Source: an uncultured Gammaproteobacteria bacterium
GTDB taxonomy: Bacteria; Pseudomonadota; Gammaproteobacteria; UBA9214
Assembly: GCA_963773065.1 (NCBI GenBank)
Contig: CAVYZN010000014.1
Span: 1 to 64,000, forward strand
Direction of reading: 5' to 3'
DNA length: 64,000 nt
Shown here: piece by piece, positions 30,703 to 50,462 of the stretch
Layout of the letters: each line of letters begins with the position of its first letter
How positions within the stretch are numbered: the stretch's first letter is position 1
Made by a program: the position numbers and the translations under genes
Notes under the pieces: model-generated
Databases searched by the model: none
Told to the model about the DNA's origin: nothing
What the model saw: only the letters and a program-made list of their open reading frames with translations

Positions 30703-31128
30703 ATGAAACCCAGTGCCCGTCTGTACCATTGTGCCGGCTGCCATTGCCAGGTCTTTGTCTGTCGACAGTGCGACCGGGGGAACCTCTACTGCGCCCGCGG
30801 TTGCGCTGAACGGGCCCGAACGGCGTCGCTGCGACGCGCCGGATCCCGTTACTGTTCGACGCGCCGGGGTCGCCTGGCCAACGCCGCCCGTCAGGGCCGG
30901 TTCCGTGCGCGTCAAAGACAAAAAGTAACGCATCAGGGTTCCCTTCCGATAGTGGCGCTTGTTCTACTCCTCTGCGCATTGAACAACCCGGAAAGTCCTC
31001 AGGAAGACGCGCGCAGCGGCGCCCCTACCGCGATTTATTGCCATGTCTGTGGTTGTGAATGCGAGCCCTGGTTGAGACGGGAGTTTCTTCGACCCACCGA
31101 ACGCGCTCGACAACCGCGAGCACCGTGA
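30703..31128 (+). CDS. Cys-rich (zinc-finger-like) accessory protein of the IS21 element
   Basis: CAGC..VCRQCDRGNLYC..GC...CHVCG. Confidence 0.65.
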   Translation: MKPSARLYHCAGCHCQVFVCRQCDRGNLYCARGCAERARTASLRRAGSRYCSTRRGRLANAARQGRFRARQRQKVTHQGSLPIVALVLLLCALNNPESPQEDARSGAPTAIYCHVCGCECEPWLRREFLRPTERARQPRAP

Positions 31129-31155
31129 CCGAAGCGCGACAACAGGAGACAGCCA

Positions 31156-32738
31156 TTGACGATCGACAAGGAACAGGAAGCGAAGATTCTGCGCTATCAC
31201 TTCGTGGAGCGCTGGGGGGTGAACACCATTGCCGCGCAACTGGGTATTCATCACTCCAGCGTCGATCGGGTGCTCTCGCAGGCGGGCTTGCCCAAAGCCG
31301 AGCGCACCCGCCAAGCCTCGATCGTCGATCCCTACCACCCGATGATCATCGAGACGCTCGCGCAGTTTCCCCGGCTCACCGCCGCACGCCTGTATGCCAT
31401 GGCGCAGGCGCGCGGCTACGCCGGTGGGGCGAGCCAGTTCAGGGCGCATGTGGCGCAGCTGCGCCCGCGCAAGCCCAGTGAGGCGTATCTGCGACTGCGA
31501 ACCCTGCCGGGCGAGCACGACTGCATGGATGCAGGAGGTAGAGCAACGCAGGAGCAGTTGCCGAGGCACAGATCGACTGGGGGCACTTCGGGCAGGTACA
31601 GATCGGCCGGGCGCAGCGCCCGTTGATGGCCTTCGTGATGGTGTTGAGCTGGAGCCGGCAGATCTTCCTGCGCTTTTATCTCAACCAACGCATGGACAAC
31701 TTCCTGCGCGGGCACGTCGCGGCGTTCAGCGCCTGCGGGGGTGTGGCGCGGGTGCTGCTCTACGATAACTTGCGCTCCGCCGTGCTCGAGCGCCAGGGCG
31801 AGGCGATCCGTTTTCACCCCACGCTGCTGGCGCTGTCGGCACACTATCGCTTCGAGCCGCGGCCGGTGGCGCCCGCGCGAGGCAATGAAAAAGGCCGTGT
31901 CGAGCGGGCGATCCGCTACATCCGCGACAGCTTCTTTGCCGGTCGTCAATGGTCGGATGTCGAGGACTTGAATGCGCAGGCCGCGGCCTGGTACTCGGGC
32001 CTCAGTGCCAACCGCCCGTGTCCGGAAGACCCCGCTATCACCGTCAGGGACGCCTTCGAGCAGGAGCGCGCGCAGCTCATTGCCTTACCGGACAATCCCT
32101 ATCCCACCGAGGAACGCCTCGAAGTGAGTGTCGGCAAGACACCGTATATCCGCTTTGATCTTAATGACTACTCGGTGCCGCACACCCAGGTGCGGCGCAC
32201 CGTGACGGTCCTGGCCTCGCCGACCCAGGTGCGGGTGCTTGACGCCGGCGCGGTGATTGCCGAGCACCGGCGCGTCTATGGCAAGGGCGAGCAGATCGAG
32301 GATCCGGGCCATATCGAGGCGTTGATCGATGCCAAGCGCGGCGCACGCCAGCACCGCGGTCAGGACCGCCTGGCGCACGCGGCGCCGTCGAGCCGCCAGT
32401 TGCTGCGCGAGGCGGCCGAGCGGGGCAACCGCCTGAGCCAGGTCGTCTCGCAGCTGACCCGGCTGCTCGACGAATACGGTGCAAGCGCGCTCGAGCACGC
32501 CATCGCCGAGGCGCTCGCCAACGGGGTTCCGCACCCCAATGCGGTGCGCCAGGCGCTGGAGCGAGCGCGTGAGCAGCGCCACCTGCCGCCACCGCTGGCC
32601 ATCGTGCTGCCGGACAACGCCAAGGCGAGAAACATCGTGGTGCGTCCCGCCTCCCTGGCGGCCTACGATCAACTCGACACCGACGACGCCGCCGAGATGG
32701 CAGAGCAACAGGAGCGCACCGATGACGAGAACCGCTGA
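31156..32738 (+). pseudogene. istA: IS21 transposase IstA, frameshifted by a 47-bp insert
   Basis: LPGE[insert]QAQIDWG, LYDNLRSAV, NEKGRVERAIRYIR. Confidence 0.88.
31518..31564. mobile_element. 47-bp miniature insertion
   Basis: Deleting CGACTGCATGGATGCAGGAGGTAGAGCAACGCAGGAGCAGTTGCCGA restores GAG CAG GCA CAG ATC GAC TGG (EQAQIDW). Confidence 0.8.
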
Positions 32739-33531
32739 TGCAGGGATCCCTCAGGAAGCGCTCAAGCAGCGGGCGCTCGCGCTCAAGCTCCATGAGCTGG
32801 TTGCGCACTGGGAGGAGCTGAGCGACCCGCAGATCGACTGGGTGAGGGCGTTGCTCCAGTGGGAGGACAGCGAGCGCAAGCGCCGCGGTCTGGAACGACG
32901 GCTGAGCGCGGCGCACATCGGCCGCTTCAAACCCCTCGCTGACTTCGACTGGGACTGGCCCGCGCAGTGCGACAAGGCGGCCGTCTCAGAGCTGATGCGC
33001 CTCAACTTCATCAAGGACGCCACCAACGTCATTCTGGTCGGGCCCAACGGCGTCGGCAAATCCACCATCGCACAGAACATCGTGCATCACGCCGTCCTGC
33101 AGGGACACAGCGCCTTGTTCGTCAACTCCGCCCAGATGCTCGGGGACCTGGCGGCACAGGAGGGTGACAACGCCTTGCGCCGACGCCTGAAACACTACGC
33201 GCATCCACAGGTGCTGGTGATCGATGAAGTCGGTTACCTCTCCTACGGCAGTCGCCATGCGGATCTGCTGTTCAACATCGTTAATCAACGCTATGAGCTC
33301 AAGCCAACGATTGTGACCACAAACCGACCCTTTGGCGAGTGGAACGAGGTGTTCCCCAACGCAGCCTGCGTGATCTCAATCGTCGATCGCCTGGTGCATC
33401 ACTCCGAGATCATCGTCCTCGAGGGCGAGTCCTATCGCTTCCGAGAGGCGAAGGAGCGCGCCAGCAGGAAGAAGAAATCCACGAAATCCACGCGTAGCGC
33501 CACTCCAAGAACGCCCGCAGGAGACCGCTGA
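32722..33531 (+). CDS. istB: IS21 helper ATPase IstB
   Basis: GPNGVGKS Walker A, LVIDEVGY Walker B, DRLVHHS. Confidence 0.93.
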   Translation: MTRTADAGIPQEALKQRALALKLHELVAHWEELSDPQIDWVRALLQWEDSERKRRGLERRLSAAHIGRFKPLADFDWDWPAQCDKAAVSELMRLNFIKDATNVILVGPNGVGKSTIAQNIVHHAVLQGHSALFVNSAQMLGDLAAQEGDNALRRRLKHYAHPQVLVIDEVGYLSYGSRHADLLFNIVNQRYELKPTIVTTNRPFGEWNEVFPNAACVISIVDRLVHHSEIIVLEGESYRFREAKERASRKKKSTKSTRSATPRTPAGDR

Positions 33532-33533
33532 CC

Positions 33534-33737
33534 ATGTCGATGAAAGTCACACGCTTATACACCTACTGGGACGCCCCGGAAGCCCATGCCGTCATCGAGT
33601 TCCTGGAGGTGCTTCGAGATCAGCTCTGGGAGATCTATGGCGATCAGATCATTGATCTGCTTCGCGAGGAAACCGTTACCCAGGGCGCAAACGAGCAGCA
33701 GGCCGAGCTTCAGTTCGATGACGACCCTGAGTTCTAG
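33534..33737 (+). CDS. Small acidic accessory protein of the IS21 element
   Basis: 67-aa ORF right after istB, inside the right end. Confidence 0.6.
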   Translation: MSMKVTRLYTYWDAPEAHAVIEFLEVLRDQLWEIYGDQIIDLLREETVTQGANEQQAELQFDDDPEF

Positions 33738-34709
33738 ACGGCACTGATACGGGCGCCACCGATAGCGTCCATAAGCTGTTATGCCTGGATACGGCAAACA
33801 GTCGCGGCAAATAGCCGCGCTTTTACTCCGGCAACAACAGCTGGTGAGATCGTAAAGCAGTACATCGAAGCTGACGTTGAACAGATCACGCCAGCGGCTC
33901 GCCAGATGATCAAACACCGCCGTCTTGTGCGCGAGCAAGCGGTCGTGACACGCATAGAGCGTGTGGATGTCGGCAAGCCGCTCGTCGGCTCCGAGCAAAT
34001 CAGCGAGCGCGCTGCGCTCGAACCACTCCCGGTGCAGTCGCCACTCGCTGCCCGGGGCGAGCAGCCGATAGGCGACCAGCACGAACAGCACCTGATCCCA
34101 GCGCGTCCCCTTGCGGCTCTTGCTCAACCGCACCCCCCAGAACGCATCGAGCTCCAGCTGCTGCCAAAGCCGCCACGCCAACCACACCGCGCCCCACTGC
34201 CGCGGCCGGCACAATCGCAGTTGCGACAGGCACAGCCGCACCACCGCGGCATCCTCGCTCAGCCCCTCACAGCGATCCTCGGGAAGCAGTGCGAGCGTGC
34301 GCGCTGTGCCCTCACGCTCGTCCAACACCTCGATCGAACGGCGCCACGCACGCTCCTGGGAATCGGTGATCTCGCCCAGGTACAGCACGTGCCGTTGCAG
34401 CACGCGCCCATCGGCAAGGCGTCGATTCTCAACCACGCTCCAGTAACGGTGCGTCTTGCCATCCTTCTTGCGGGTCGTCGCACGCAGAAACATGGCACCC
34501 CATTATCCACACCGTTTTGCCGCGGGGAACAAGCAAGGTCTGCACTACAGCGGTTTTCGGGCGATTCCGCTCGAGAGCCTACATACCGATCAATCACTTG
34601 TGCGAAGCGGTCCGCGAAAAATCACGAAAATCAAGGGCGAATCCGCCAAGTTGGGCTAATGTCTCAGCCGTCCTGTTCCGTCGTTTCGCGGACCCACTTT
34701 CTGTCTCTA

Positions 34710-35045: not shown

Positions 35046-35702
35046 GGGTTTTCCCTATTCTGCCTGTGATTCTTCTATCTCTACCCGGAAGGTGGGAGTA
35101 GTCTGACTCGGCTTATTGGATTTGACCAGCTTCCTGCGATACGACCCCATGGCATGGACTACGGAACTTCCGAATCCGGCCATAACTTGCCGTTCCCGGA
35201 CGGCTAGCGAACGGCAACTTTGCCCGCAACTACGGACATTCATGTCGCTCAGGTTGTGCGGTTGTCCGTGATAGCAGGACGGGGACACGTTTCAGGCACC
35301 GCCATCCAAGCCCATGGGAATTCCAATCTCGCAGTCTCAGTTTGGCGAATAGCTACTGGACCTAAACGAAGCGAAACTCGGCCCTATCATGAGGTGTAAA
35401 AAAACGCCCCTCGGAGTGCAGAGGGGCGATAAGGCCTGATGAGGGTCAACGGCACCTTCCGTGGCACTGAAGTACTGAAAGTGTAGTCGAGCGAAACAGG
35501 TCTGTCTTGTAAAAACGCCGAGGTACACGACATCAGGAAGACAAGGACACCCGGGAAAAAGGCACAAAAAGCGGGACACTTCAGGAACAACCACCTGCTA
35601 AAATTAAATTGCGGAGGTTTCTATCCGCTGATGATTGCAGTGCACTTGGTTACCAAGTTTGCTGTCCACATTGCATATAAAACAGTTGATGAGGTAGTAG
35701 AT

Positions 35703-36113
35703 ATGACTAAGCTGAACAAAACATTGTGTGTCGCTGCCATTGCCGGCGCCCTAGCGGTTCCTTTTACGGCAGCCCAAGCCTGGGGTCCCTGGGGTGGTGG
35801 TGGTCCCTGGAGTAATGGCTGGGGTAATGACAGCTCGGGTGAGGGCTGGGGTGATGGCTCCGGTGACATGGACTTCAGTATGAGCGGTAGCGGCCATGGC
35901 AGTGGTTATGGGCGTGGTCGTGGTTATGGCTCTGGCTATGGTTATGGCTATGGCGGCTATCCGGGTTATGGCTATGGTGGCTATCCCGGTTATGGTGGCT
36001 GGGGTGGTCCTGGCTATGGCGGTGGCTATCCAGGTGCCTATGGTGCGCCGTATGGTTATGCTCCCCCGGCGGTCGCACCCGTACAACCAGCCGCACCGGC
36101 CAGTAGCAAATAA
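35703..36113 (+). CDS. Sulfur globule envelope protein (SgpA/SgpB-like)
   Basis: Signal peptide ending AAQA, then WGPW, GDMDFSMSG and GYGGYP/YGAPYGY repeats; RBS GAGG. Confidence 0.8.
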   Translation: MTKLNKTLCVAAIAGALAVPFTAAQAWGPWGGGGPWSNGWGNDSSGEGWGDGSGDMDFSMSGSGHGSGYGRGRGYGSGYGYGYGGYPGYGYGGYPGYGGWGGPGYGGGYPGAYGAPYGYAPPAVAPVQPAAPASSK

Positions 36114-36203: not shown

Positions 36204-37832
36204 CTAAGCCGGCATAGCCGGAACCAAACAGGAAGAGGTATTGTACGCACGGGCTAAGCGGTGGTGGCGACGATGACACAGGCGTTGGTGGAACGGTACG
36301 CAGATCGGTTGCATGGGGTGCTCTCCTGTTACGACCGCATCGTGATGACGGGCACGTTGCCGGGGGCCTGCTATGCGCAGGGCATGACGGCGTTTTTGTA
36401 CGCGAGGGGCATTCGGATTTTCGACTATCCCCGGTTTGCCGAGCCCTTGCGCGAGGCGCTCCGCGAGCGCGCGCAGGAGCTGGCGCAGTCGGCGGGGATC
36501 GAGATCGAGCATATCGCCAAAGCCCACATCCGCAAGGAAGATGTGGTCGCCAAGGTGCTTGAGCGGCGCGGCGATCATCCGGGTCTGGTGCACATCATTT
36601 CGGCGATGGAAGCCTGTCAAAGCTACAAGCCCTGGCATGACAAGGCGAGCGGCAAGACCTACCTCAAGCCCGATACGGGCAAATGCCTGCACTACTATTT
36701 TTACTTCATCGACCCGCTCGTCGGCCTGTGTTACCTGCGGGTGCCGACTTGGTGCCCGTTCAAATTGCAGTTCTATTGCAACGGCCATGGTTGGCTGGCG
36801 CAGAAGCTTAAAACCCGGCGCATCGGCTTTACCCAGGTGGACAATGCCTTTGTGCGCCTGGATGACTTCGCGCGCGCGCAACAGTTGGCCGATGGCTTCA
36901 AGCCCGAGCAACTGCACCGCATCCTGGATCGTTACGCGCGCCAGTGCTGCCCGGTGCACAAGAGCTTCGGGCAAGGCTATCACTGGAGCCTGCTGCAGGT
37001 GGAGTACGCTACCGATCTGGTGTTCCGCTCCCAAGAGATGCTGGCGCCCCTGTATGAACAGCTCTCCCGCCAGGCGGTGCTGGGGGTGAAGGCCGAACAG
37101 ATTGCCACCTTTCTCGGCAAGAAGATCACCCCGCCGCTGGCGCAGGAGATCGGCAACCGCTTTGCCACCCGCATCGAAGGGACCTGCATCAAACATCGCC
37201 TGGGCAAGGTTCAGGTGAAGATGTACGACAAATACGCCCGTGTGCTGCGCATCGAAACCACCGTCAACGACGTCTCCTTCTTCAAGCACCACCGCAAGGT
37301 GGAACATCGAGATAGACCCAGCACGCGGCAACTGGCGCCGCTGAAGAAATCCATCTACAGCCTGATCGATCTGCGCCAGATCCTCCTGGGATGCAATCGC
37401 CGCTACCTGGAGTATCTGTCCGCGCTGGACGATCACAGCGCCGGACAGCGCGCGCTCTCGCGCCTGACCGACGAGCGGTGCGAGAGCGACCGGCCGATCA
37501 AGGGCCTGAACTTCTTCAAGCGCACCGAGCAGCAACTGCTGCGGGCACTGCAACGTCCGCAGTTCAATATCCACGGTCTGCGGCGCGCCGATCTGATGGC
37601 TTTGCTGCCCCACGCCTCGGCGGCTGCGCTCTCGCGAGAGCTGAAACGGCTGCTTGCCCTCGGCGTGATCAAACGGGTCACCGGAACTTATCGTTACTAC
37701 CTCACGCGCTTGGGGCGCGCCGCCATCGCCGCCGCCTGCTCGCTCACGGAATTCAGTATCGTTCCCGCTTTGGCCACTGCAAAGTAACAAACTCTTCGCC
37801 ATTTCTGTCAACAGTAAAGTCATAAGAGACTA
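36204..37832 (+). mobile_element. Insertion element without terminal inverted repeats, copy 2
   Basis: Duplicate of 26425-28053; CTA at 36204-36206 and 37830-37832. Confidence 0.9.
36261..37787 (+). CDS. Putative transposase, 508 aa (copy 2)
   Basis: Same protein as copy 1 except LDDH versus LDNH. Confidence 0.75.
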   Translation: MVATMTQALVERYADRLHGVLSCYDRIVMTGTLPGACYAQGMTAFLYARGIRIFDYPRFAEPLREALRERAQELAQSAGIEIEHIAKAHIRKEDVVAKVLERRGDHPGLVHIISAMEACQSYKPWHDKASGKTYLKPDTGKCLHYYFYFIDPLVGLCYLRVPTWCPFKLQFYCNGHGWLAQKLKTRRIGFTQVDNAFVRLDDFARAQQLADGFKPEQLHRILDRYARQCCPVHKSFGQGYHWSLLQVEYATDLVFRSQEMLAPLYEQLSRQAVLGVKAEQIATFLGKKITPPLAQEIGNRFATRIEGTCIKHRLGKVQVKMYDKYARVLRIETTVNDVSFFKHHRKVEHRDRPSTRQLAPLKKSIYSLIDLRQILLGCNRRYLEYLSALDDHSAGQRALSRLTDERCESDRPIKGLNFFKRTEQQLLRALQRPQFNIHGLRRADLMALLPHASAAALSRELKRLLALGVIKRVTGTYRYYLTRLGRAAIAAACSLTEFSIVPALATAK

Positions 37833-38152: not shown

Positions 38153-38316
38153 ATCAGGGGGTAGAAACGGGCAAAGGTCATCATCAGCAAATCGATTGCC
38201 CGGTCGTCTGAGGGCATGCCATGTAGTCGTTTAGACGTTCACCCCTTCTCTGATGGAAAACGTACGAACGTCTCTACTTTTAGAGAACCGATATCGCCAC
38301 TTTAAACATCAAACGG

Positions 38317-38340
38317 AAACGGCGACCGAAGCCGCCGTTT
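38317..38340 (-). terminator. Intrinsic terminator after the cohesin-like gene
   Basis: AAACGGCG-ACCGAAGC-CGCCGTTT hairpin about 20 bp past the stop. Confidence 0.7.
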
Positions 38341-38362
38341 CTGTTAAATCAAATCTTAATCG

Positions 38363-38944
38363 TCACGCTGCTCTTTTGCGTCTTGATATCCCGAGCAAAC
38401 TCAGCAGGCCGGAACTAAACAACCAAACTGCAGCAGGAATGGGTATAGCACTTATATTCACCGTACCTTCAAGCAGCGTTGGGGTAATCTGTGCTGTGGC
38501 GCTGAAAAATTGCGAACTCCCCAGGATCGTGAGGCTTGGGCTACCTGCAGACGCTGCGGTCAGAGTCATCGTGGCAATAGTAAAAGTCCCGGTGGCCGGA
38601 TCATTGACAAAGGTGTCGAAGCCGATACCCGGCCAGGTATTACCAACGGCCGGCCCACCCCCATCAGGCAGAAAGTCGAAAAGGGCGCTATTAACAGCCA
38701 CCGATACGACTGTGAGCAATGTACTGTCAAACCCAAGATCAATCACACCGCCGGCCAGTTCCGTGAAATTGCTGCCGACAATGTCCACGGTAAACGTGTC
38801 GCCCATTGTGACCGCTTTGAGATCCGGATTGAAACCCACCGTGGTGGCCAATGCCACTCCGTTGCAGCTGAGTAACAATGCAGCCGCACCCAGTGCGCGT
38901 AGCAGTCTGGCGGTCGTTGTTTCAAGTACTCGTATTATGTTCAT
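38363..38944 (-). CDS. Cohesin-like domain protein with VPLPA/PEP-CTERM-type sorting signal
   Basis: Signal peptide; VTMGDTFTVDIV..LAGGVIDLGFDSTLLTVVSV...GTFTIATMTLTAASAGSPSLTI; C-terminal IPIPAAVWLFSSGLLSLLGISRRKR. Confidence 0.75.
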   Translation of the reverse strand: MNIIRVLETTTARLLRALGAAALLLSCNGVALATTVGFNPDLKAVTMGDTFTVDIVGSNFTELAGGVIDLGFDSTLLTVVSVAVNSALFDFLPDGGGPAVGNTWPGIGFDTFVNDPATGTFTIATMTLTAASAGSPSLTILGSSQFFSATAQITPTLLEGTVNISAIPIPAAVWLFSSGLLSLLGISRRKRAA

Positions 38945-39079
38945 TTTGTTCTCCGTAATCAGGTATTGGTTATGTATTGGTTATGTGTTATTGCTGAATT
39001 GCATGCGGTCATCAATCATGACTGTCCCGCTTCGTTGCAGCCCTTCCGGAAGGGTAAACCATTTTCTTCTTGAGCCGCG

Positions 39080-42000
39080 CTAGAACGACCCGCAGCACGA
39101 TGGTCCCGGTGGTTGGCGGTACAGCCCCTTGAGAATATTCAGATCCAGCGTGTTGATCACCCGTCCCCGTTAAAGTCCGAATTGGCAGTGTAGTTGGCAT
39201 CACCCACGGCTGAACGGTATGCAAGCTTGAGCAGGTTCAGATCCAGCGTGTTGGTCGCGCCATCATTATTTAAATCGCCATCGCAAATATTGCCATAGCC
39301 ATCGCCATCCGTGTCACGTTGATCGGGGTTTGGAACGTTGATGCAGTTGTCGGAGGCGTCTGGCACACCGTCACCATCGGCATCAGGAAGTGGAGTTGTC
39401 ACCGGTGTCATCACAATTTTGGCTCTTTTGAATTCCGAGTGGGTTAACGCGCCACATGTGGGTTGAGTTTGGAGAAGTCGAGTTTGCCGGCGATCAGGAA
39501 AATCACAGTACGGATCGTGCTGAACCGACCGTAGCCGCGCGCTTTGCGCTTGGCGGACTGGAACAGCCCGTTCAGTGCCTCCAGGAAACCATTGGTCTGA
39601 CGGGTCTGCGCCCAGGCAATGATGCTCTCGAAATGGTTGCGGATCAGTTTGGCAACTTCCTTCATGGGTTCGACTTTGGAGCGCATGACATTGGTACACC
39701 ACTGCCAGAGCATGGCGGCGACCACGTTGATCTGTTTGCGATCGAGGATCTCGCCGCAACTGCTCACGGTACACCCACGCTCGGGCGGTCCGCTTCGTGG
39801 TGAGTTTGGCGAGCAGGTTGTCGACTTCCGCGCGGGCGGTGTCGCTGAGAGTTCCGTAATTGCGCAGCAGCTTCCAGCGCAACCCCTTGAGGCCGGGCGT
39901 GGTTTTCTGCTCGATGCGCCGGGTCTCGTCCAGGGCCCTGGAGGCGTGGGCGATCACATGGAACTTGTCGAAGGTGATCCGGGCATTGGGAAGACTCTCG
40001 GCGCAGCCCTTGATGAAGGCCGGCGACATGTCGATGCTGACCGAGTCGATGGCATCAATGTCGGCACCATGGGCCCGGATATCCTCGGCCAGCCGCCGGA
40101 TCGCCTCGGCCTCACGGCCTTCGGTGACGAACAGCACCGCGCGGCGCTCGGCGTCGGCGGCCAGGGTGACATAGTCGTGGCCGCGGGCTCGCGAGGTCTC
40201 GTCGATGGCCAGGCGGGTGACCTCGGAGAAGTTGGCCTCGGCCAGCGCGAGATCGACATAGCGCCCGCAAATCGCCGCCACCCGATGCCAGCTCTCGCCG
40301 GTGAGACGTGCCACCGCCGCAAACGGCATCTCGCGCGCCAACATCAGCACAAGTGCCTCAAAGAGCAGCGTGAAGCCCGAGAGCTTCCCGGTCCAGCCCG
40401 GCTCGACCTGGCGCACCGCGCCACCAGGCAGCTTCACGCGGGGTACGCGGACCTCCAGGTAGCACTCGTGCTGGAAGAAATTGAGGTGCCGATAACGCTT
40501 GCTGACCGTATCGTGCACCGGATGGACGCCAGTCTCACCAGCCACAGCGAACCGGCTACCAGCAGTGAAGTCGATGCCTACGGTCAGAGTCTTTGCCGTC
40601 GCGTCCAAGTCAACGGATGTCACATGCCACGGCTCGGCAATGCCCAGGGCTGTTTCAAAAAGCCTGTCGTTCATCCTGATCCTATCGATTATCAGTAGGT
40701 GCGCCTAGAATACGGCTAGCCATCAGATTTCAAAAAGAGGCACAATTTTACCGGTGGTTGAGGAGGCGACAAAACTGAGCCCAGTAACAAACGCAGTCGG
40801 ATTACTGGGATCCAGCATCGCGTCCTCTTCAATGCCTCTCAGGCTAAAGCGACTGACACCATTGGGTACTCCCAGATCATCCACGAAACTGAATAATTGC
40901 CCCCCGGAAATCTTGATACCGGAATCGACATAAATACCTTGAGCATCGTCAAATAGATACAAATCATAAATGCCATCGCCAATACCTGGCGGCGGTTCGA
41001 CTGCGGCGAAATTCGGCGCTCCATCCTCCGCAGAAAAGTCGTAACCCGTCGCGCTAGCAGGGTCGAACCAAACCAGTACGGGCACCGAGTTTCCTCCCGG
41101 TCCGGGCACCGCAATTCCTGCTCTGCGGCAAGGCGACCACTTATTTGAGCATGGGAAATAAAAATTGGGATTGCTCGTTGTCGGCGGGTCCGGTAGAAGT
41201 GGGTTTTCCGGTGTGCTCCCCGGTGCATCCGCACGAATAATCGCCCCAACGGCACCGCCTCCTGTGGTTTGGTAATCCGCATAAAATGCGATTTGGCCCG
41301 CGTCATTGATTGCGTGTGACGAGAGGTTAACTCTTGCAATCGTTTCACTGCTTGTACTGCCATCCGGCAACGTGACGGGTATGGTATCTCCAACCTTAAC
41401 CACACTATTGGCCGCGGGATCGGGACCCGTAAAAATCCCATCTGGAAACACAGGACTGTTCGTAACGGCCGCCTCAAAAGCTACGACGCCGAGGTTGTTG
41501 ATCGAACTTTTCCATATGTGGGTATAGCCGGATCCGGAGGGAACCCGCGTGTCAGTTGCCGTGCCGTCACTTACTTGAAGGACATAGTCATCCAAGAGTC
41601 CTGAACCAAAGCCGTAAGCCACCTGCCCCAGATCATTAATACTGGGCGTTTCTACCCCCACGGCAAGAAGCGATTGGCTAACAGGTATCGTGGTGTTATT
41701 CACAACCTTATAAACTCTCTTATCATCTGCTCCACTACCCGTCGAGGTGGTGAGGCCAACCGTCGCGAGATCGCCGTTGCCATTAGTCGAGAACTCTGAT
41801 GCCACCACCTGGGTAAGTGTCCCCAGCGGTGTAACATCTCCCGGTCCCATTAACCGGCTGATAGCGGTACCGTCATATTTATATACCGCCTCTGCGCCCG
41901 TCGTTAAGATACCCCTGAAATAGACAGCGTTTGACTCATCGATATCGACCGCAGCACCGAGTACAGCAAACTCGGGGTTTGAAGTGGTGCTCAGCAGGCT

Positions 42001-42378
42001 ACTCGGTTCCAATTGTAAGCCGCCCTTGATCAGTTCCGAGCCAAGACCGAATAAAGGGCCAGTTTGGTTAGAAACAACGGAATTGCCGGATGCATTGAGA
42101 TTGAGGTCTTGGGTTGCGACGTTGAGATTCAGCATCAGAGACCGGTTTGTGAAGCCATCGCCGACCCCTACTACTGTCCAGGTACCTTCGACATAGTCAA
42201 CCCACCCGCTGTTGTTGATTGCCGGATTAGCCCGCATCAGGCCAGGACCGGACACGATTTGCCTGTACTTATACGTATTGTCCGCCGCGGTCGATGCTCC
42301 ATTTGGGCCCAGCAAAAGTGATGCGAAAAGAATCTGCCCCACCGCACATCTGGCGCGCCAACGTAGTATTATCATCAT
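39080..42378 (-). pseudogene. Secreted NxxGxxAF-repeat protein with C-terminal TSP3 repeat and dockerin-like domain, split by ISL3
   Basis: INDLGQVAY, INNLGVVAF, INDAGQIAF repeats; removing the ISL3 joins TTGKIV to MTPVTTPLPDADGDGVPDASDNC...DLNNDGATNTLDLNLLK...DFNGDG(V)INTLDLNILK. Confidence 0.82.
39421..40741 (-). mobile_element. ISL3-family element (transposase 39444-40674, one frameshift)
   Basis: Ends GGCTCTTTTGAA / GCCTCTTTTTGAA; 8-bp target duplication ACAATTTT; AIDETS, IDMSPAF, FDKFHVI, TNGFLEALN. Confidence 0.93.
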
Positions 42379-43225: not shown

Positions 43226-43672
43226 TCATGGCAAGGCCAGGCGCTCGGCCAGGAATGCCAGCGCGGCCTCCAGGTTAAGCGCCGCCCGCTGGCTCAACTC
43301 CTCCCCCAACTCAAACTCGTATCCGCGGATCGCGAGGACGTAAGCCGGCGGCGCGGCCTGCCCGTAATGGCGCTCATAGGCCGCCAGTACGGCCGGGGGT
43401 GTGAGGGCATGGGAGGAATAACTCTGGTCCGCCAGCGCGGTGATGGGCGCGAATTGAAACGCTTCCTCGCCGGACACGCTGGCGTCGATGAACAGCACTT
43501 CCTCCCGCTCCGCCATATCCAGCAGGTATTCCACCTGCAACTGGAAGTCGGTGAGGAGTTCCACGTCCGGCAGCTTCAGGGCCTCCAGGCGTTCGATGGC
43601 CCGGGGACCCAGCGCATCGTCGCCGCGGCTGGGGTTGCCGATGCCGATGATCAGACGGCTTGCGCGGGTCAA
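43226..43672 (-). CDS. hoxW: Hydrogenase maturation protease
   Basis: IIGIGNPSRGDDALG, FIDAS, SSHALTP. Confidence 0.88.
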   Translation of the reverse strand: MTRASRLIIGIGNPSRGDDALGPRAIERLEALKLPDVELLTDFQLQVEYLLDMAEREEVLFIDASVSGEEAFQFAPITALADQSYSSHALTPPAVLAAYERHYGQAAPPAYVLAIRGYEFELGEELSQRAALNLEAALAFLAERLALP

Positions 43673-43694
43673 CGCAAACCCCCCTTCCGGCGAA

Positions 43695-45161
43695 TCAGTT
43701 GTCCCGGCTGATGGTGTCGAGGCGGCCGCCGTCGGCGTCGAGCAATTCCACGATCAGCGGCATTTTCCCCAGCGCGTGGGTGGCGCAGGAGAGGCAGGGG
43801 TCGAAGGCGCGCACCGCCACCTCGATGTGGTTGAGCAGGCCCTCGTTGAGCTTGCGCCCGTCCAGGTGCTGCCGGGCGACCGCTCGGATGGCCTCGTTCA
43901 TCGCCTGGTTGTTGTGGGTGGTGGAGACGATGAGGTTGGCGCGCTCTACCAGGTCGTCTTCGTTGACCCGATAGTGATGGATGAGCGTGCCCCGGGGGGC
44001 CTCGATCATGCCCACGCCCCGCTCCTGGCGGGTGCCGCTCGTCACCAGGTCCTCACCCATGAGGTCATCGTCGTGGAGCAGTTCCTTGATCATCTCGGCG
44101 GCGTGCAGCATCTCGATCATGCGCGCCCAGTGATTGCCGAGGGTGGCGCCGCTGGCGCTGCCCGCATCGAAGGCGAGGAATTCCCGACGTTCCCGCTCGG
44201 CGAACGGCGTGTCGATGAAATCGCATTGCGTCACCCGGGTCAGGGGCCCCACCCGGTACCAGCCCTGCTCCGGCCCCAGGCTGCGGAAGAAGGGGAATTT
44301 CATGTACGACCAGGACTTCACTTCCTCGAAGATGTAGTCCCAGTAATGATCGTATTCCACGTGGTCGAACAGGGTGTGGCCATCCCGGTCCCGGGCGCGC
44401 AGGCCGCCGTGGTAGAGGTCCATGGCGCCGTCGGCGCGGATCAGGCTGAGGGTGTGGGCGCTAAAGCGGCCGAAGCTGGTGTAGAGCGCCAGGTTCTGCT
44501 CGAACAGGCGCCGCGCCAACTGCACCGCGTCCCGGCTCCAGGCGATGATCTGGTAGATGTCCGCGAGCAGGAAGTCGCGTTCTTCCCGGGACAGGTTCTT
44601 GTTTATCCCGCCGGGGATGGCGCTGGTGCCGTGAATCCGCTTGCCGGCGGTGACGCGGATCACCTCCTGGCCGAACTTGCGCAGCAGCACGCCCTGCCGG
44701 GCGATGTCGGGGTAGGCGGCGGCGACACCGACGAGATTGCGTCTGGCCACGTCGGAATCGAAGCCGAACAGCAGGTCCGGGGAGGACAGGTGGAAGAAAT
44801 GCAGGGCGTGGGATTGCAGGATTTGCCCGTAATGCATGAGCCGGCGCAGCTTTTCCGCCGTGGGCGTGAGCTGCGTCGCGCCGACGATCTGGTCCATGGC
44901 CTTGGATGCGGCCAGGTGGTGGGACACCGGGCAGATGCCGCACAGGCGCTGCACCATGACCGGAATCTCCCAGAACGGCCGGCCCTGGACGAATTTCTCG
45001 AAGCCGCGGAATTCGACGATATGCAGCCGGGCCTGCTGGACGCGGTCGTATTCATCCAGCAGCAGGGTGACTTTGCCATGGCCCTCGACCCGGGACAGGG
45101 GTTCGATGGCCACCCGGCGTAAATTTTCCGGATGGGCGGCGGTTTCCAGTTCAAGGCTCAT
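43695..45161 (-). CDS. hoxH: NAD-reducing [NiFe] hydrogenase large subunit (group 3d)
   Basis: [17 protein letters not shown] (L1), [10 protein letters not shown] (L2). Confidence 0.95.
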
Positions 45162-45197
45162 TGCGATTACCTGTGAGAGTGTCCTCGGCCATGCCGT

Positions 45198-45761
45198 TCA
45201 GTCGTAGGAGATCAGCCCGTGCCCCAGCCTGGGCGTGTGCCCGGCGAGCAGATCGGTGAGGAAAGACCAGATGGCGTCGGCGGACGGGGGGCAACCGGGA
45301 ATGAAATAATCCACCTTCACCACCTCGTGCAGCGGGCGCACCTTGTCCAGGGGCAGGGGCAGTTCCGGGTCGTTGGGGATGAGGCCGTTCTCCAGGCCGG
45401 GTTCGGTGAGATAGACCTCCGAGAGGCAGTCGGCCAGGTCCAGGTGATTGCGCTGGGCGGGCAGCCCGCCGGTGATGGCGCAGGCGCCGATGGCCACCAG
45501 GATCTTGCAGTTCTTCCTGAATTCCCGCAGCACGCGCACATTCTCCGCGTTGCAGATGCCGCCCTCGACGATGCCGATGTCGCAGAGGCCGCAGTGCTTG
45601 ATGTCGGTTAAGGGGCTGCGATCGAACTCCACCAGCTCCAGCAGGGTGAACAGGCGTTCATCGATGTCGAGCAACGACATGTGGCAACCGAAACAGCCCG
45701 CCAGGGAAGTGGTGGCCACCCGCCATTTTTTCGTTACCGGGGGAGAGGAGGCAGCACCCAT
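45198..45761 (-). CDS. hoxY: NAD-reducing hydrogenase small subunit
   Basis: SLAGCFGCHMS, GACAITGG, IPGCPP. Confidence 0.92.
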   Translation of the reverse strand: MGAASSPPVTKKWRVATTSLAGCFGCHMSLLDIDERLFTLLELVEFDRSPLTDIKHCGLCDIGIVEGGICNAENVRVLREFRKNCKILVAIGACAITGGLPAQRNHLDLADCLSEVYLTEPGLENGLIPNDPELPLPLDKVRPLHEVVKVDYFIPGCPPSADAIWSFLTDLLAGHTPRLGHGLISYD

Positions 45762-46513
45762 CAGGGCGACTCCTCGCAGGACTTGCAGGGGTGCTGTGCC
45801 TGGGAACCCCGGGGGGCATCCGCCAGGGCCTGGGCGCTGATGGGCTGTGCATCGTAACGGCGCCGACCGATGGGCACGGCGAACCCCACGCGCTTCTTCA
45901 GGATCACGCCGACGGGACAAACCTCCATGGCCTTGTCGGTGAGGGCGATGTCGGTGTGTTCCAGGCGGCCGGATTCAGAATTCACGATCAAATGCTTGTC
46001 CAGACCCCGGCCGGAGAGAGCGAACACGTTCTTGCCGTCCACTTCGCTGGAGGCGCGCACGCACAGCTCGCACAGGATACAGCGGTTGAAGTCCAGCAGG
46101 ATGTCCGGGTGGGAGGCGTCTACGGGTCTATCGGGGAAGTAGTGGCGGAAGCCGGCGGTCATTACGCCCAAATCGTAGCCCAGTGCCTGCAGCATGCAGT
46201 TGCCGCTCTTCTCGCAGGAGGGGCAGAAATGGTTGCCCTCGGCGAACAGCATCTGCACCAGGGTATGGCGCAGGCCGTTGATCTCCTCCGTAGCGCTGGC
46301 CACCTCGAGGCCGGCCTGGGCAGGCAGGGTGCAGGAGGTGGCGGTGCGGCCGTTGACCATGACGGTGCAGACCTTGCAACTGCCATGGGGTTTGAACTCC
46401 GGGTGGTAGCAAAGATGGGGGATATAGCGCCCCGCAGCCAGGGCCGCCTGGACCACACTCTGGCCCGGCTCGAAGGGGACTTCCTCCCCATCGAGAAGAA
46501 AGCTCTGGGTCAT
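45761..46513 (-). CDS. hoxU: Diaphorase Fe-S subunit
   Basis: IPHLC...GSCKVC, HFCPSCEKSGNC, RCILCELCVR. Confidence 0.92.
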   Translation of the reverse strand: MTQSFLLDGEEVPFEPGQSVVQAALAAGRYIPHLCYHPEFKPHGSCKVCTVMVNGRTATSCTLPAQAGLEVASATEEINGLRHTLVQMLFAEGNHFCPSCEKSGNCMLQALGYDLGVMTAGFRHYFPDRPVDASHPDILLDFNRCILCELCVRASSEVDGKNVFALSGRGLDKHLIVNSESGRLEHTDIALTDKAMEVCPVGVILKKRVGFAVPIGRRRYDAQPISAQALADAPRGSQAQHPCKSCEESP

Positions 46514-48384
46514 GATTCGCTCTCCAGGTGCGCTCCTGCATCGTCCCGGCCGGTCATCAGGCGGGCCCGTGCCAGGGCGCCATCCAGGTCGAAAGCCGGC
46601 TCGAAATCCAGGGATTTGAGGCGCCGTTCATAGGCCGGGCGGAAGCGCTTGAGGGTGTCCAGGGTGGGATTGCAAGCGGTATGTCCCAGGCCGCAGTGGG
46701 CGCTCATGTGCAGCACCCGGTCCAGGGACTCGATCTCTTTCAGGTCGTAGGGAGTGCCGTGTCCCGCCCGGATCTTGTCCATGGTGTCGCGCAACATGGC
46801 CGTGCCGACCCGGCACGGCGTACAGAAACCGCAACTTTCGTGGGCGAAGAAATGGGCGAAGTTGCGCGCCACCTCGAACATGTCCCGGCTGGCATCGAAC
46901 ACCATGAAGGCGCCGGCGGTAGGCAGGTCCTCGAAGGCGATCTTGCGCCCGAACTCGCTGGCGTCGATGCACACGCCCGAGGGGCCGCTGATCTGGACCG
47001 CCTGGGCATGCTCCGCGCCGCAGTCTTCCAGCACCTGGCGCACGCTCGTTCCGAAAGGGTATTCGTAGATGCCGGGGCGGGCGCAGTCCCCGGACACCGA
47101 CAGCACCTTGGTGCCGGCGGATTTGGCCGTGCCGATAGCGCGGTACCAGTCACCGCCGTGGGCGGCGATAAGGGCGGCGGCGCAGAAGGTTTCTACGTTG
47201 TTCACCGTGGTGGGGCGTTGCAGGTAGCCGTGGGTGACGGGGTAGGGGGGGCGGTTGCGGGGGATGCCGCGCTTGCCCTCCAAGGAGTCGATCAGGGCCG
47301 ACTCCTCACCGCAAACGTAAGCGCCGGCGCCCACGTGGATGTCGATATCGAAGTCAAAACTGGCCTGTCCACAAATCTCCCCGCCGAGCAGATGGTCGGC
47401 GCGGCGGCGCTCAAGCACCCGGATCAGAGGCTCCAGCAGATAACGGTATTCGCCGCGCAGATACAGAAAGCCCTGGCTTGCGCCGATGGCATGGGCCGCG
47501 ACCGTCATGCCCTCGAACACCAGGTCGGCGTGACGGGTGAGCAACACCCGGTCCTTGAAGGTGCCGGGCTCGCCCTCGTCGGCGTTGCACACCACGTAAC
47601 GCCGCGGGCAGGCGGCATCGCGGCAGGCTTCCCACTTCAGGCCGGTGGCGTAGCCGGCGCCGCCCCGGCCGCGCAGATTGGAGCGCTTGATTTCTTCCAG
47701 TGTCGAGGGAAGGCCCGCTGCGGCGGTGCCGGTGGCTGCGCGCCGGGAATCCACATCGCCCGCCGGTTCCGCCCGGGCGCCGCGTTCGATGGCCGCACGC
47801 AGCGCATCGCCCGGTTGCAGCTTATGGTTGAGGAGGATATCCGTCCGCCGGATGTTGTCCTCGATGGTGAACAGTTCCATGGGCCAATCTTCCAGCGGCC
47901 GTTGTTCCAGGATCAGACCGGCAATCTCGTCCAGGCGCTCCCGGGTGATGCGCGGGATGGCCCGGCCGTTGACCAGCAGGCCGGGCCCCTGGTCACACAG
48001 GCCGGTACAGGAGGTGAAGTCGATGGATACCAGACCCTCCTCGGACATGTGTCCCCGCTCCACCCAGAGCTTGGTGCACAGGTATTCCAGCAGATCCTGG
48101 TTGCCGCGCATGCGGTCGGTGATGTTGTTGGAGAACAGCACCCGGTAGCGGCCCACCGGCCGCAGGTGAAGAAAACTGTAAAACCCCGCCACCCCCTCCA
48201 CCCGCGCGCGCGGCACGTCGAGGCCGCGGGCCAGAGCGGTCAGCGCCGCGGGCGGGATCCAGCCGTTGAGTTCCTGAACCTCGCGCAGGATCTGCACCAG
48301 CCGGGTGGCATCGCGTCCATGGCGCTCCAGCAGGGTATCCAGCCTATCCTGGGTGAGCGGTGGGGTGGCGGGTGGTGTCGGCAT
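46510..48384 (-). CDS. hoxF: Diaphorase flavoprotein subunit (NuoE+NuoF-like)
   Basis: LRGRGGAG, NADEGEPGTFKDR, GAYVCGEESAL, HESCGFCTPCR. Confidence 0.93.
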   Translation of the reverse strand: MPTPPATPPLTQDRLDTLLERHGRDATRLVQILREVQELNGWIPPAALTALARGLDVPRARVEGVAGFYSFLHLRPVGRYRVLFSNNITDRMRGNQDLLEYLCTKLWVERGHMSEEGLVSIDFTSCTGLCDQGPGLLVNGRAIPRITRERLDEIAGLILEQRPLEDWPMELFTIEDNIRRTDILLNHKLQPGDALRAAIERGARAEPAGDVDSRRAATGTAAAGLPSTLEEIKRSNLRGRGGAGYATGLKWEACRDAACPRRYVVCNADEGEPGTFKDRVLLTRHADLVFEGMTVAAHAIGASQGFLYLRGEYRYLLEPLIRVLERRRADHLLGGEICGQASFDFDIDIHVGAGAYVCGEESALIDSLEGKRGIPRNRPPYPVTHGYLQRPTTVNNVETFCAAALIAAHGGDWYRAIGTAKSAGTKVLSVSGDCARPGIYEYPFGTSVRQVLEDCGAEHAQAVQISGPSGVCIDASEFGRKIAFEDLPTAGAFMVFDASRDMFEVARNFAHFFAHESCGFCTPCRVGTAMLRDTMDKIRAGHGTPYDLKEIESLDRVLHMSAHCGLGHTACNPTLDTLKRFRPAYERRLKSLDFEPAFDLDGALARARLMTGRDDAGAHLESES

Positions 48385-48560
48385 AGGCAAGAAGGCCTGG
48401 TGGTCCCGAGTCGGTCCACATTCAGTTTAGACCGGGTGAGCCACAAATAGGGCCATGCGTGCTTGTGCCTGGAATCTAGCCCCTAACAGGATGAGTGTCA
48501 ACGCAGCAGCAGGCGGGCGGCGGCGATCGGGGTGGCGTAGCCGGCATCGACGGCGTCCCG

Positions 48561-49356
48561 TCAGAGCATGTTATAGGCGAGCACCAGGCACCCGAAGGCG
48601 ATGCGGTACCACGCGAACAGGGAAAAATCGTGATGCGCTATGTAGTGCAACAGGAACTTGACCGCCGCCAGCGCGCTCAGGAACGCAGCCACGAAGCCGG
48701 TGGCGAAAACCTCGGCGTCAGCCACGCTCAACAGGTGCCGGCTCTCGTACAGGTCGTAGGCGGTGGCCGCGAACATGGTCGGTATCGCGAGGAAGAAGGA
48801 GAATTCCGTCGCCGCGCGTCGCGACAGGCCGAATACGAGCCCGCCCATGATGGTCGCGCCCGAGCGCGAGACGCCGGGGATGAGCGCAGCGGCCTGAGCG
48901 ACTCCCAACCTGCAGCGCCTGTTTCCAGCCGATGGCATCGACGTCATCCACGCGCGGTTTGCCGACGAGCCGCTCGATTGCGAGGATCGCGACGCCGCCG
49001 CCGATGAGCGCGCAGGCGACGACGACCGGCGTGAACAGATAGGTCTTGATGTATCCGTGCAGCAGGAATCCGAGCGCGGCGGCGGGCAGGAAGGCGATCC
49101 CGATGTTGAAGGCGAACCGGCGAGCCTCGGGTTCGCGGTGCAGCCCGAGTGCCACGAAGGCGAGGCGGGCGCGATACAGCCAGCACACGGCGAGGATGGC
49201 GCCAAGTTGGATTATGACCTCGAAGGTCTTGGCCTTCTCTCCGGTATAATCGAGCAGGTCGGCGGCGATGATGAGATGTCCGGTGCTGGAGATGGGCAGG
49301 AATTCGGTCAATCCCTCGACGATCCCGAGCAGCAGTGCCTTGAGGAAGAAGTCCAT
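48561..49356 (-). CDS. uppP: Undecaprenyl-diphosphatase (frameshift near 48900)
   Basis: [35 protein letters not shown]. Confidence 0.92.
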
Positions 49357-49453
49357 GGCGATTAATGAATCGGTCAAAAAAAACGGATGATACCATGTCG
49401 GACTGGAAGAAATGTCGCGGCGCCGCGCCGCGCGCCGTGAACGAGGGTGTCCT

Positions 49454-50462
49454 ATGGGCGTAGCACTCAGCCTGGTGGTGATGCTGCTGCTGATCCTCGT
49501 CGCGGCGGAGGTCTTCACGAATGCGCTGGAGCACCTCGGCGAGCGCCTCGGAATCTCGGAGGGCGTGACGGGTTCGCTCTTCGCGGCAGTCGGCACCGCC
49601 ATGCCGGAAAGCATCGTGCCTCTGGTCGCCCTGCTGGCCGGTGGAGAGAATCCGGATGTCAATGCCGCAGATCGGCGTCGGCGCCATCCTCGGCGCACCG
49701 CTCATGCTCTCGACGCTGAGCCTGTCGCTGATGGGTCTCTCGGTCGTGCGCAGACGCGGGCTGCGGGGGCATCTGCGGCCGGAGCGTACCGGCCTCGAGC
49801 GGGATCTCGCCTTCTTCCTGATCGCCTTCGGCATCGCGCTCGTGGCGCTGTTCATCCCGGCCCCGCTTGGCTGGTTACGCGCCGTGTTCGCCGCGATGCT
49901 GATATTGACCTACTTCGTCTACGCGCTGCTCACACTGCGCGTATCGGCGAAGCTGGTCGAGGAAGGACATGCCACGCAGGCGCATCGCAAGATGTATCTC
50001 CACCGCCTCGGCATGCCCGACAACATGGCGATCGTCATCTTCCAGATCCTGTTCGGTCTGGTGCTGCTGGTCGGCGGCGCAAAGGGCTTCGTGCACGGCG
50101 TCAAGGAAGCCTCGGAACTCATCGGCGTATCGCCCTTGCTGCTGTCGCTTCTGCTCATCCCCATCGCGACCGAGTTGCCGGAGAAGGTCAACAGCATCCT
50201 CTGGATCCGGCGCGCCAAGGACACGCTTGCCTTCGGCAACATTACCGGGGCGATGGTCTTTCAGGGAAGCATCCTTCCCGTCATCGGCCTCATGATGACC
50301 CCCTGGCGTTCGACTCCTGAGGTGCTGGTCGGCGTGCTGGTGACCTATGGCGCGGCGCTCTGGCTGTACTGGCACGCACGGCGCAGCGGCGGCCTCAGGA
50401 TCTGGCATCTGTGCGTCAATGGCCTGCTCTACGTCGTTTATATCGTCGTCATGGTCGCCTGA
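49454..50462 (+). CDS. Sodium:calcium antiporter family protein (frameshift near 49660)
   Basis: AAVGTAMPE and PIATELPEK alpha repeats; GAILGAP, GNITGA. Confidence 0.85.

Follow-up and report, generated by a model that had tools for sequence, protein, structure and literature searches.

What is a gammaproteobacterium doing with two adjacent genes, one for a secreted protein that ends in a dockerin-like module and the other for a single cohesin bearing a VPLPA-CTERM-type tail, the kind of signal on which exosortases act? The question is raised by a 64,000-nucleotide stretch of DNA (the window, G000:C14:1-64000) in a host genome, G000, of 3.84 Mb, 33 contigs and 90.9% completeness. A sequence-only reading of the window had proposed that the anchored cohesin is a docking post for dockerin-tagged cargo. 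In our analysis it is probable that a single cohesin, sorted by an exosortase, serves to catch secreted proteins that carry a dockerin tag, for indirect surface display or matrix retention. Damaged as the window copy is, it opens the way to a well-supported system that can be tested. Pairs of this kind turn up in many gammaproteobacterial families, where the cargo enzymes are unrelated.

In the proposed mechanism both cohesin and cargo, each carrying a Sec-type signal peptide, would be exported by Sec. By analogy with known exosortase systems, XrtD would remove the VPLPA tail and leave the cohesin attached to the envelope. Calcium would fold the dockerin, whose two matching helices could bind the cohesin in either orientation, and every anchored cohesin would hold one cargo, 1:1, outside the cell. 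One to three cohesin genes would serve up to about 19 cargoes per genome via a genome-specific recognition code. Since one sorted cohesin would recruit dockerin cargo, a dockerin tail would be an alternative to a direct VPLPA tail.

The cohesin gene is an open reading frame at 38363-38944 of the minus strand, encoding 193 residues. As had been read from the sequence alone, it comprises a signal peptide, one beta-sandwich and a VPLPA-type tail, and it lies directly downstream of the dockerin gene. The features are as follows.

38846..38944, minus strand: signal peptide of the cohesin protein (sequence inspection and the N-terminal helix of the model).
38453..38845, minus strand: single cohesin domain (Pfam, PDB profile search, AlphaFold2 model, fold search).
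38363..38452, minus strand: VPLPA-CTERM-type tail (proline motif, hydrophobic helix, basic cluster) and stop (sequence).
38316..38341, minus strand: 11-bp stem-loop and T-rich tail just 3' of the cohesin gene, a likely terminator, although stem-loops of this kind are in no excess in the region (4 found, 4.9 expected in shuffles).
38945..39079, minus strand: 135-bp spacer between the dockerin and cohesin genes, conserved with the cassette of G009, a same-genus genome.

The Pfam cohesin profile PF00963 reached 18.3 bits on the window protein (profile positions 11-139; cut-off 24.1), and a search of the G000 genome with it gave no match. A cohesin-profile search of the PDB returned five matches, all five to cohesin-bearing chains (best E 0.012). 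A model of the domain was built with AlphaFold2 from 66 homologs (predicted local distance difference test score 84.6) and compared with 48,161 chains. Ranks 1-20 were all cohesins, with Z from 17.3 to 12.0, while the first non-cohesin had Z 10.2. The best match was 6kgc_A (Z 17.3, root-mean-square deviation 2.0 Å over 133 residues). As modelled, the window domain has the nine-stranded cohesin beta-sandwich fold, in agreement with its earlier assignment. The tail is tripartite, with a proline motif, a hydrophobic helix and a basic end, and the model places a C-terminal helix at 171-192.

The gene upstream is interrupted and was reconstructed from the following features.

40742..42378, minus strand: 5' part of the cargo gene, with signal peptide, NxxGxxAF repeats (DUF7453-like) and a C-terminal beta domain (profiles, homologs).
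40742..40749, minus strand: target-site duplication, upstream copy, 8 bp (direct repeat).
39421..40741, minus strand: ISL3-family insertion sequence with frameshifted transposase, cutting the cargo gene right before its TSP3-dockerin tail (sequence, profiles, copies).
39413..39420, minus strand: target-site duplication, downstream copy, 8 bp (direct repeat).
39286..39384, minus strand: TSP3 calcium-binding repeats before the dockerin (PF02412, 41.2 bits).
39157..39285, minus strand: first dockerin repeat with the linker and the calcium loop of the second, cut short by a TGA that arises from a one-base deletion (PF00404, 24.6 bits).
39080..39160, minus strand: helix of dockerin repeat 2, conserved Pro-Gly-Pro-Ser end and stop, in a shifted frame (comparison with relatives).

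The cargo reading frame ends at 40723, six codons within ISL3. It contains three NxxGxxAF repeats and scores 50.9 bits with TIGR05002 (cut-off 50). The insertion sequence has imperfect inverted repeats at its ends and four further full or partial copies elsewhere in G000 at 99% identity; the window copy carries one extra base relative to three of them. Removing it restores a single frame of 630 residues up to the stop within the dockerin. The closest homolog of the cargo, P0235 (40% identity, 97% cover), runs unbroken across the junction. An arbitrary join across ISL3 was rejected, as the target duplication, the frame and P0235 concur. Relative to the intact gene of G009 (its protein identical to that of locus L002), one base is deleted near 39160, so the second calcium-loop/helix motif, with the final 26 residues, falls in another frame. 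This deletion may be an assembly error, because the G000 assembly has many one-base breaks (the ISL3 copy, xrtD). ISL3 is a real insertion, so the window cargo is probably made without its tail. An intact dockerin module is thus absent from the window's own gene, given ISL3 upstream and the deletion inside, and this copy is probably inactive, as judged from its sequence. The window and G009 cassettes (TSP3-dockerin, spacer and cohesin gene) are 78% identical over 1031 bp. A metagenome scan using the window cargo found no relative. The repair suggested in the sequence-only reading (removal of ISL3, one missing base restored near 39160) was borne out, as was its description of NxxGxxAF repeats, TSP3 and a duplicated calcium-loop/helix.

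That the duplication is a dockerin also held. PF00404 (cut-off 22.9 bits) scored 24.6 bits on the partial window module and 28.6 bits on the intact G009 relative, and it matched 46 of 53 aligned dockerin members at E<=0.001. The duplicated calcium loop (positions 1, 3, 5, 9 and 12) and helix are present, with Asp invariant at 1 and 12 of both repeats in 22/22 sequences. Compared with the PDB by sequence, the intact L002 dockerin gave 19 matches, all to dockerin-bearing chains (best E 6.8e-6). The model of the G009 dockerin has two helices, 13-22 and 46-55. In its fold search, dockerins took ranks 1-15 of 18 matches, the best with Z 6.6 (root-mean-square deviation 1.8, 52 aligned), a score that is modest because the domain is small; the next unrelated chain had Z 2.2. 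By sequence and modelled fold, then, the tail of the upstream gene is a dockerin. Complex prediction for the natural G009 pair gave scores of 0.29 and 0.25 against a mark of 0.32 and was counted neither for nor against binding. A dockerin-profile search of 1.84 billion representatives returned mostly multi-repeat proteins. Another dockerin-like family, whose second loop contains an insert and which is located N- or C-terminally, was seen at G000:C6:120581-121837 and C16:125623-126690, and weak matches to it (L072-L082) occur in many genomes of the family in which no cohesin was found.

Do the two gene types belong together? PF00963 and PF00404 alone miss most members, and custom profiles were therefore used. 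Over a 400-genome sample PF00963 matched 14 genomes, mostly in longer unsorted proteins, and was not informative about the pairing. Profile A7 covers the tail as well and catches tail-only matches too, which were set aside by model coordinates. The cleaner test came from a class sample of 399 other genomes, as these did not seed profiles A5 and A6; just 10 to 15 candidates were scored per genome, so its counts are floors. A cohesin was found in 18 genomes and a dockerin match at E<=1e-6 in 26, the latter in 15 of the 18 cohesin genomes versus 11 of the 381 others. At E<1e-15, a threshold for full-length dockerins picked after a gap in the scores was seen, the counts were 14/18 versus 1/381. 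The 14 genomes with both represent 12 families. The sole exception, G051, has a cohesin-VPLPA gene adjoining its dockerin gene, so that a cohesin domain is present in 15 of 15 class genomes with a full-length dockerin.

Ten of the 14 (G116, G140, G166, G172, G211, G217, G229, G238, G330 and G357) have the two genes side by side in the same orientation, with either one first; among the loci read, the cohesin tail is cut off in G140 and the cohesin start in G166. In G085 and G277 a longer protein begins with the cohesin and has no tail visible, and no XrtD match was found in either genome. Three-gene cassettes also occur (L134 in G217:C12, L132 in G357:C5, L209 and L210), with a dockerin cargo, a cohesin and then a cohesin-VPLPA gene. 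Their middle cohesin has a GlyGly-CTERM-like tail in G217 and is tailless in G357, L209 and L210. Upstream of the cohesin gene of G140, a 326-residue protein (L114:412-1389, G140:C100) combines a cohesin-like domain, TSP3 and a dockerin; from this arrangement it could be an adaptor able to form chains. Some cargoes (L124, L158, L118, L129) have the TSP3-dockerin near the N-terminus, and those of L124 and L158 are related large proteins encoded directly after a cohesin-VPLPA gene.

Within the family (54 genomes), 13 cohesins were found in 8 genomes, all with VPLPA-type tails. Dockerins at E<1e-10 were present in all 8 cohesin genomes versus 5 of the 46 others, counts that are partly circular, as G000, G009 and G047 seeded the models, and that come from kin that are not independent. 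Two of the five dockerin-only genomes, G050 and G051, turned out to have divergent cohesin-VPLPA genes. A dockerin lay within 1.5 kb of 8/13 cohesins versus 3/115 other VPLPA tails (ten genomes). Dockerin matches outnumber cohesins by 14 to 1 in G043, 11 to 2 in G044 and 19 to 3 in G045. Islands in these genomes (G044:C6:714-805 kb, G045:C1:15-93 kb, G043:C7 and C8) hold 6-10 dockerin-tagged genes each and are rich in CCP/MauG and multicopper-type proteins. Of 79 metagenome loci picked by tail pattern, 11 are cohesin loci. The three of at least 5 kb all hold a dockerin gene and the eight shorter ones hold none; among the non-cohesin loci a dockerin gene was found in 0/68, including 0/22 of those of at least 5 kb. 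The expectation that the two gene types co-occur in related genomes was borne out: they occur together, and as neighbours too, far more often than the controls.

Signs of a binding face were sought in the symmetry between dockerin repeats. Among 51 parsed dockerins, 22 non-redundant ones were used to compare repeat identity within and between proteins. The within/between values were 0.77/0.09 at position 10, 0.68/0.10 at 11, 0.91/0.12 at 14, 0.95/0.32 at 17 and 1.0/0.36 at 21 (permutation p 0.0002 each), with no excess at positions 2, 4, 15, 18, 19 and 22. Positions 5, 7, 9, 13, 16 and 20 are matched between repeats too, some of them being calcium or core positions. In the accessible portions of PMC6780208 and PMC8063739, dockerin recognition positions are given as 10, 11, 17, 18 and 22, and similar repeats as a sign of dual binding. 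Plain duplication or gene conversion was rejected as the origin of the symmetry, as matched and unmatched positions alternate with a helical period. Across 62 dockerins, identity at the symmetric positions was 0.75 within versus 0.20 between genomes, compared with 0.44 versus 0.27 at other variable positions. Such symmetric, genome-specific positions are as expected of a cohesin-binding face.

A natural exchange points the same way. Identity among the SGNH cargoes of G009, G007 and G000 is 85-88%, but compared with the types on contig C27 of G000 it is 32% for the G009 dockerin and 29% for the G009 and G007 cohesins. The unrelated cargo of the window shares the G009 types (dockerin 79%, cohesin 77%). 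Dockerin type and cohesin type thus switch together under an unchanged cargo.

The cargoes are diverse. Pfam was run on 44 of them (from 54 whole ones and two added) and identified subtilases, CCP/MauG di-haem proteins, multicopper-oxidase-like proteins, a sulfatase, a GDSL hydrolase and a galactose-oxidase-like protein, together with PKD, Ig, LamG and LVIVD proteins. No glycoside hydrolase family was matched in any of the 44 at E<=1e-6, and 13 of the 44 had no Pfam match. The sequence-only reading had spoken of a miniature non-cellulolytic cellulosome analogue. "Cellulosome analogue" overstates the case, because the anchors carry a lone cohesin apiece and a scaffold with several cohesins is absent. 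A cellulosome proper was rejected, as the sorted proteins seen have one cohesin each, at most two single-cohesin genes stand in tandem and the 44 cargoes scanned include no glycoside hydrolase.

Some cargoes have relatives with a different tail. The window cargo has three homologs besides itself. P0235 ends in a direct VPLPA tail exactly where the window cargo continues into TSP3-dockerin, and the remaining homologs have Ig-like or HYR domains at their ends. When 57 dockerin cargoes were compared with 186 tailed proteins, one more tail swap emerged, between a G357 cargo and two G156 proteins (39-41%). Two cases are few, yet by sequence they fit the dockerin as an alternative route to the same place. 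A bolder extension, which we consider conceivable though doubtful, is that the TSP3-dockerin tail acts in Gammaproteobacteria as a second tier of protein sorting, able to load any secreted enzyme onto one exosortase-processed cohesin. The genome-specific helix code would then be a private-goods lock admitting only a cell's own enzymes, and tails would have been swapped in evolution between direct anchor and plug. Under such second-tier sorting, loading might already occur in the periplasm, followed by export with the cohesin (a type II secretin is encoded on G000 contig C9), and in flocs and sediments the lock would apply to extracellular proteases and redox enzymes.

The host genome holds further pairs. 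At G000:C27:114912-126523 (L040, L041) there are four intact secreted TSP3-dockerin proteins (a PKD protein, two subtilases and an SGNH/GDSL protein) together with two more cohesin-VPLPA genes, both of them immediately downstream of a subtilase-dockerin gene. All three cohesin-VPLPA genes of G000 therefore immediately follow a dockerin gene. The C27 types are only distantly related to those of the window (dockerin about 31% identical, cohesin 28%), and the C27 dockerins all share a Gly-Pro type code. The search of G000 yielded no other dockerin of the type seen in the window, so the window cohesin, itself intact, is probably orphaned, and the working pairs of this genome appear from their sequences to be those on C27. 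The window has no exosortase gene, as had been observed; the genome does carry XrtD, the exosortase specific for VPLPA tails, on contig C6. TIGR04152 was the best match, with 333.4 and 224.4 bits in two adjacent frames (profile 3-268 and 284-486). The gene lies in the region G000:C6:36722-37480 (L042), in an exopolysaccharide (EPS) locus with gmd, fcl, wecA-like and PrsT-like genes.

Several observations weigh against capture of dockerin-tagged proteins by a sorted cohesin. For every member we infer both binding and surface anchoring from genomic and sequence patterns, and the family counts carry the circularity mentioned above. The window protein has no match to TIGR03370 (VPLPA-CTERM), which does match 57 of the 66 aligned homologs at E<=0.001; its C27 paralogs match below the cut-off. 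In G000 xrtD is split in two frames, which may be an assembly error or a lesion, and in the class sample XrtD was above cut-off in 14 of the 26 dockerin genomes, with some exosortase-like match in 20. Three family genomes (G010, G026 and G049, 85-91% complete) have dockerins with no cohesin found, and for 5 of the 13 family cohesins the nearest dockerin is 10-22 kb off or on another contig. Sorted cohesins with no dockerin found occur in G132, G306 and G234 (all three retested) and in G409, G441 and G155; the cohesin can exist alone, and the dependence is therefore one-way, with dockerins nearly always accompanied by a cohesin but cohesins not always by a dockerin. The published recognition positions 18 and 22 are asymmetric here and are replaced by 14 and 21. 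The joint switch of types could be explained by physical linkage alone. A mirror-tree (Mantel) comparison of 17 neighbouring pairs gave a weak correlation (rho 0.22, p 0.007), which without close kin fell to rho 0.17 (p 0.07).

The main rival accepts binding and disputes location. The pair would bind, but not be held on the outer surface: the processed cohesin would be released into the EPS matrix, or the complex would stay periplasmic, and the role of the cohesin would be that of a stabiliser, an escort or a hook in the matrix. Among the cargoes are several redox proteins of the CCP/MauG and multicopper types, which are often periplasmic. The xrtD gene sits among EPS genes, and the cohesins of some cassettes are untailed. 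In the available parts of PMC11980579 and bioRxiv 10.1101/2023.06.07.544157, surface anchoring by exosortases is apparent or inferred, direct chemistry being described for archaeosortase and rhombosortase only; there, the data on Zoogloea flocs are taken to speak for anchoring and against release. In G217, moreover, a cohesin with a GlyGly-CTERM-like tail stands in place of, or alongside, the VPLPA one, an arrangement suggesting that what persists is the membrane anchor itself, whatever its type. We judge release or a periplasmic location unlikely.

Somewhat less likely still is that there is no binding at all, the cohesin-VPLPA protein being a structural matrix protein of the PEP-CTERM class and the dockerin-like tail a calcium-stabilised cap, both residing in islands of secreted proteins. 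Dockerin genes are indeed grouped in islands of 30-90 kb, where other VPLPA genes are found as well, cohesins without dockerins exist, and the insert-bearing dockerin-like family is weakly matched in cohesin-free genomes. Against this, other VPLPA genes are seldom next to dockerins (at least one of the three cases among 115 is a broken cohesin), every class genome with a full-length dockerin has a cohesin domain, and an inert cap would not retain genome-specific, two-fold symmetric residues on one helix face. A third possibility, very improbable, is that the partner of the dockerin face is the dockerin itself, a different receptor or a polymer, that the cohesin recognises carbohydrate or EPS, and that a common role at the surface has led to co-selection of the two with no direct contact. 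The weak mirror-tree signal, the 14 dockerins of G043 with its one intact cohesin found on another contig, and G049 with several dockerins and no cohesin found would fit it, but in the loci read no other partner gene tracks the dockerins, and the two types change jointly under the same cargo.

If capture by a sorted cohesin is taken as the working model, the system would function in the manner of ScaE or OlpA/OlpC without being a cellulosome. OlpA and OlpC of Clostridium thermocellum are single-enzyme anchors and, as is proposed for the proteins described here, present a single anchored cohesin to individual dockerin-tagged enzymes. They differ in SLH anchoring, a Gram-positive wall and a cellulolytic context, whereas no glycoside hydrolase was found in 44 cargoes here. 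Their structures matched the window cohesin with Z 16.0 (3ul4) and 15.7 (4dh2). ScaE of Ruminococcus flavefaciens (2zf9, Z 12.8) likewise has, in the accessible text of PMC12484212, one cohesin and a tripartite C-terminal sorting signal, and is a surface post for dockerin proteins including a peptidase. Its signal is an LPXTG sortase signal, in contrast to VPLPA/PEP-CTERM and XrtD in a two-membrane host, and the present system has no scaffoldin or X-module and has a TSP3 repeat before the dockerin. NagJ-NagH of Clostridium perfringens (2ozn), the best dockerin fold match, is a cohesin-dockerin pair outside cellulose breakdown, as here, and the Archaeoglobus fulgidus cohesin 2xdh (Z 16.4) is similarly non-cellulosomal. 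Database annotation includes cohesin-domain proteins with PEP-CTERM tails.

In the literature covered, no exosortase-type anchor was seen for known non-cellulosomal cohesin-dockerin modules, though the survey of Peer et al. 2009 may list proteobacterial cases. The 'planctosome' hypothesis for Nemodlikiaceae, as far as the available part of PMC6461901 sets it out, resembles the present system in a proposed cohesin-dockerin peptidase assembly, TSP3 and a double-membraned bacterium. It differs in a lamin-tail anchor on a 2,210-residue protein plus adaptor and in having no sorting signal or exosortase, and it is itself a proposal. VPLPA-CTERM/XrtD and PEP-CTERM systems (TIGR03370, TIGR04152), in the descriptions at hand, share the tail, the enzyme and the EPS-locus context. 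There each tagged protein, mostly a non-enzyme, is sorted directly, whereas in the proposed system many enzymes lacking the tag would be recruited indirectly, through a single protein that bears it. Full-text literature searches, with supplements outside their scope, found no paper joining cohesin with PEP-CTERM, dockerin with PEP-CTERM, or all three, and none of 14 papers listed for VPLPA concerned this subject, to judge by title. Cohesin and exosortase are both reported for anaerobic methanotrophic (ANME) archaea, yet are listed separately in the portion of the source available.

The role of cohesins and dockerins outside cellulosomes is described as unknown in the accessible part of PMC5244752, and most PEP-CTERM/VPLPA proteins as lacking known activity in those of PMC11980579 and bioRxiv 10.1101/2023.06.07.544157. 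The proposed capture, if true, would supply a function for non-cellulosomal cohesins and dockerins and for a class of PEP-CTERM/VPLPA proteins at once. Sortase-anchored ScaE would then have an equivalent in bacteria with two membranes, and it would become clear how sediment and sulfur-cycling bacteria keep the proteases and redox enzymes that they secrete close to the cell. Many of the pairs are naturally orthogonal, with distinct symmetric codes, and could extend the cohesin-dockerin toolkit for Gram-negative display.

The surroundings of the pair were also surveyed. Several further transposase-like genes, some broken, lie at 29370-34493 and 36261-37787 of the window. These genes flank a lower-GC stretch (0.49-0.57 at 38-43 kb) that contains the cohesin/dockerin pair, which suggests that the pair is part of an acquired island. 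No promoter signal above shuffles was found. Two membrane-protein genes at 48718-50462 look frameshifted, a further sign of frequent one-base breaks in the assembly. A cluster on the minus strand at 43226-48390 has translations that read like an NAD-reducing NiFe hydrogenase with a maturation protease, which we presume it to be. On the plus strand, 35631-36113 encodes a sulfur globule protein (PF17228, 26.8 bits, cut-off 26.7), pointing to a sulfur-oxidising host.

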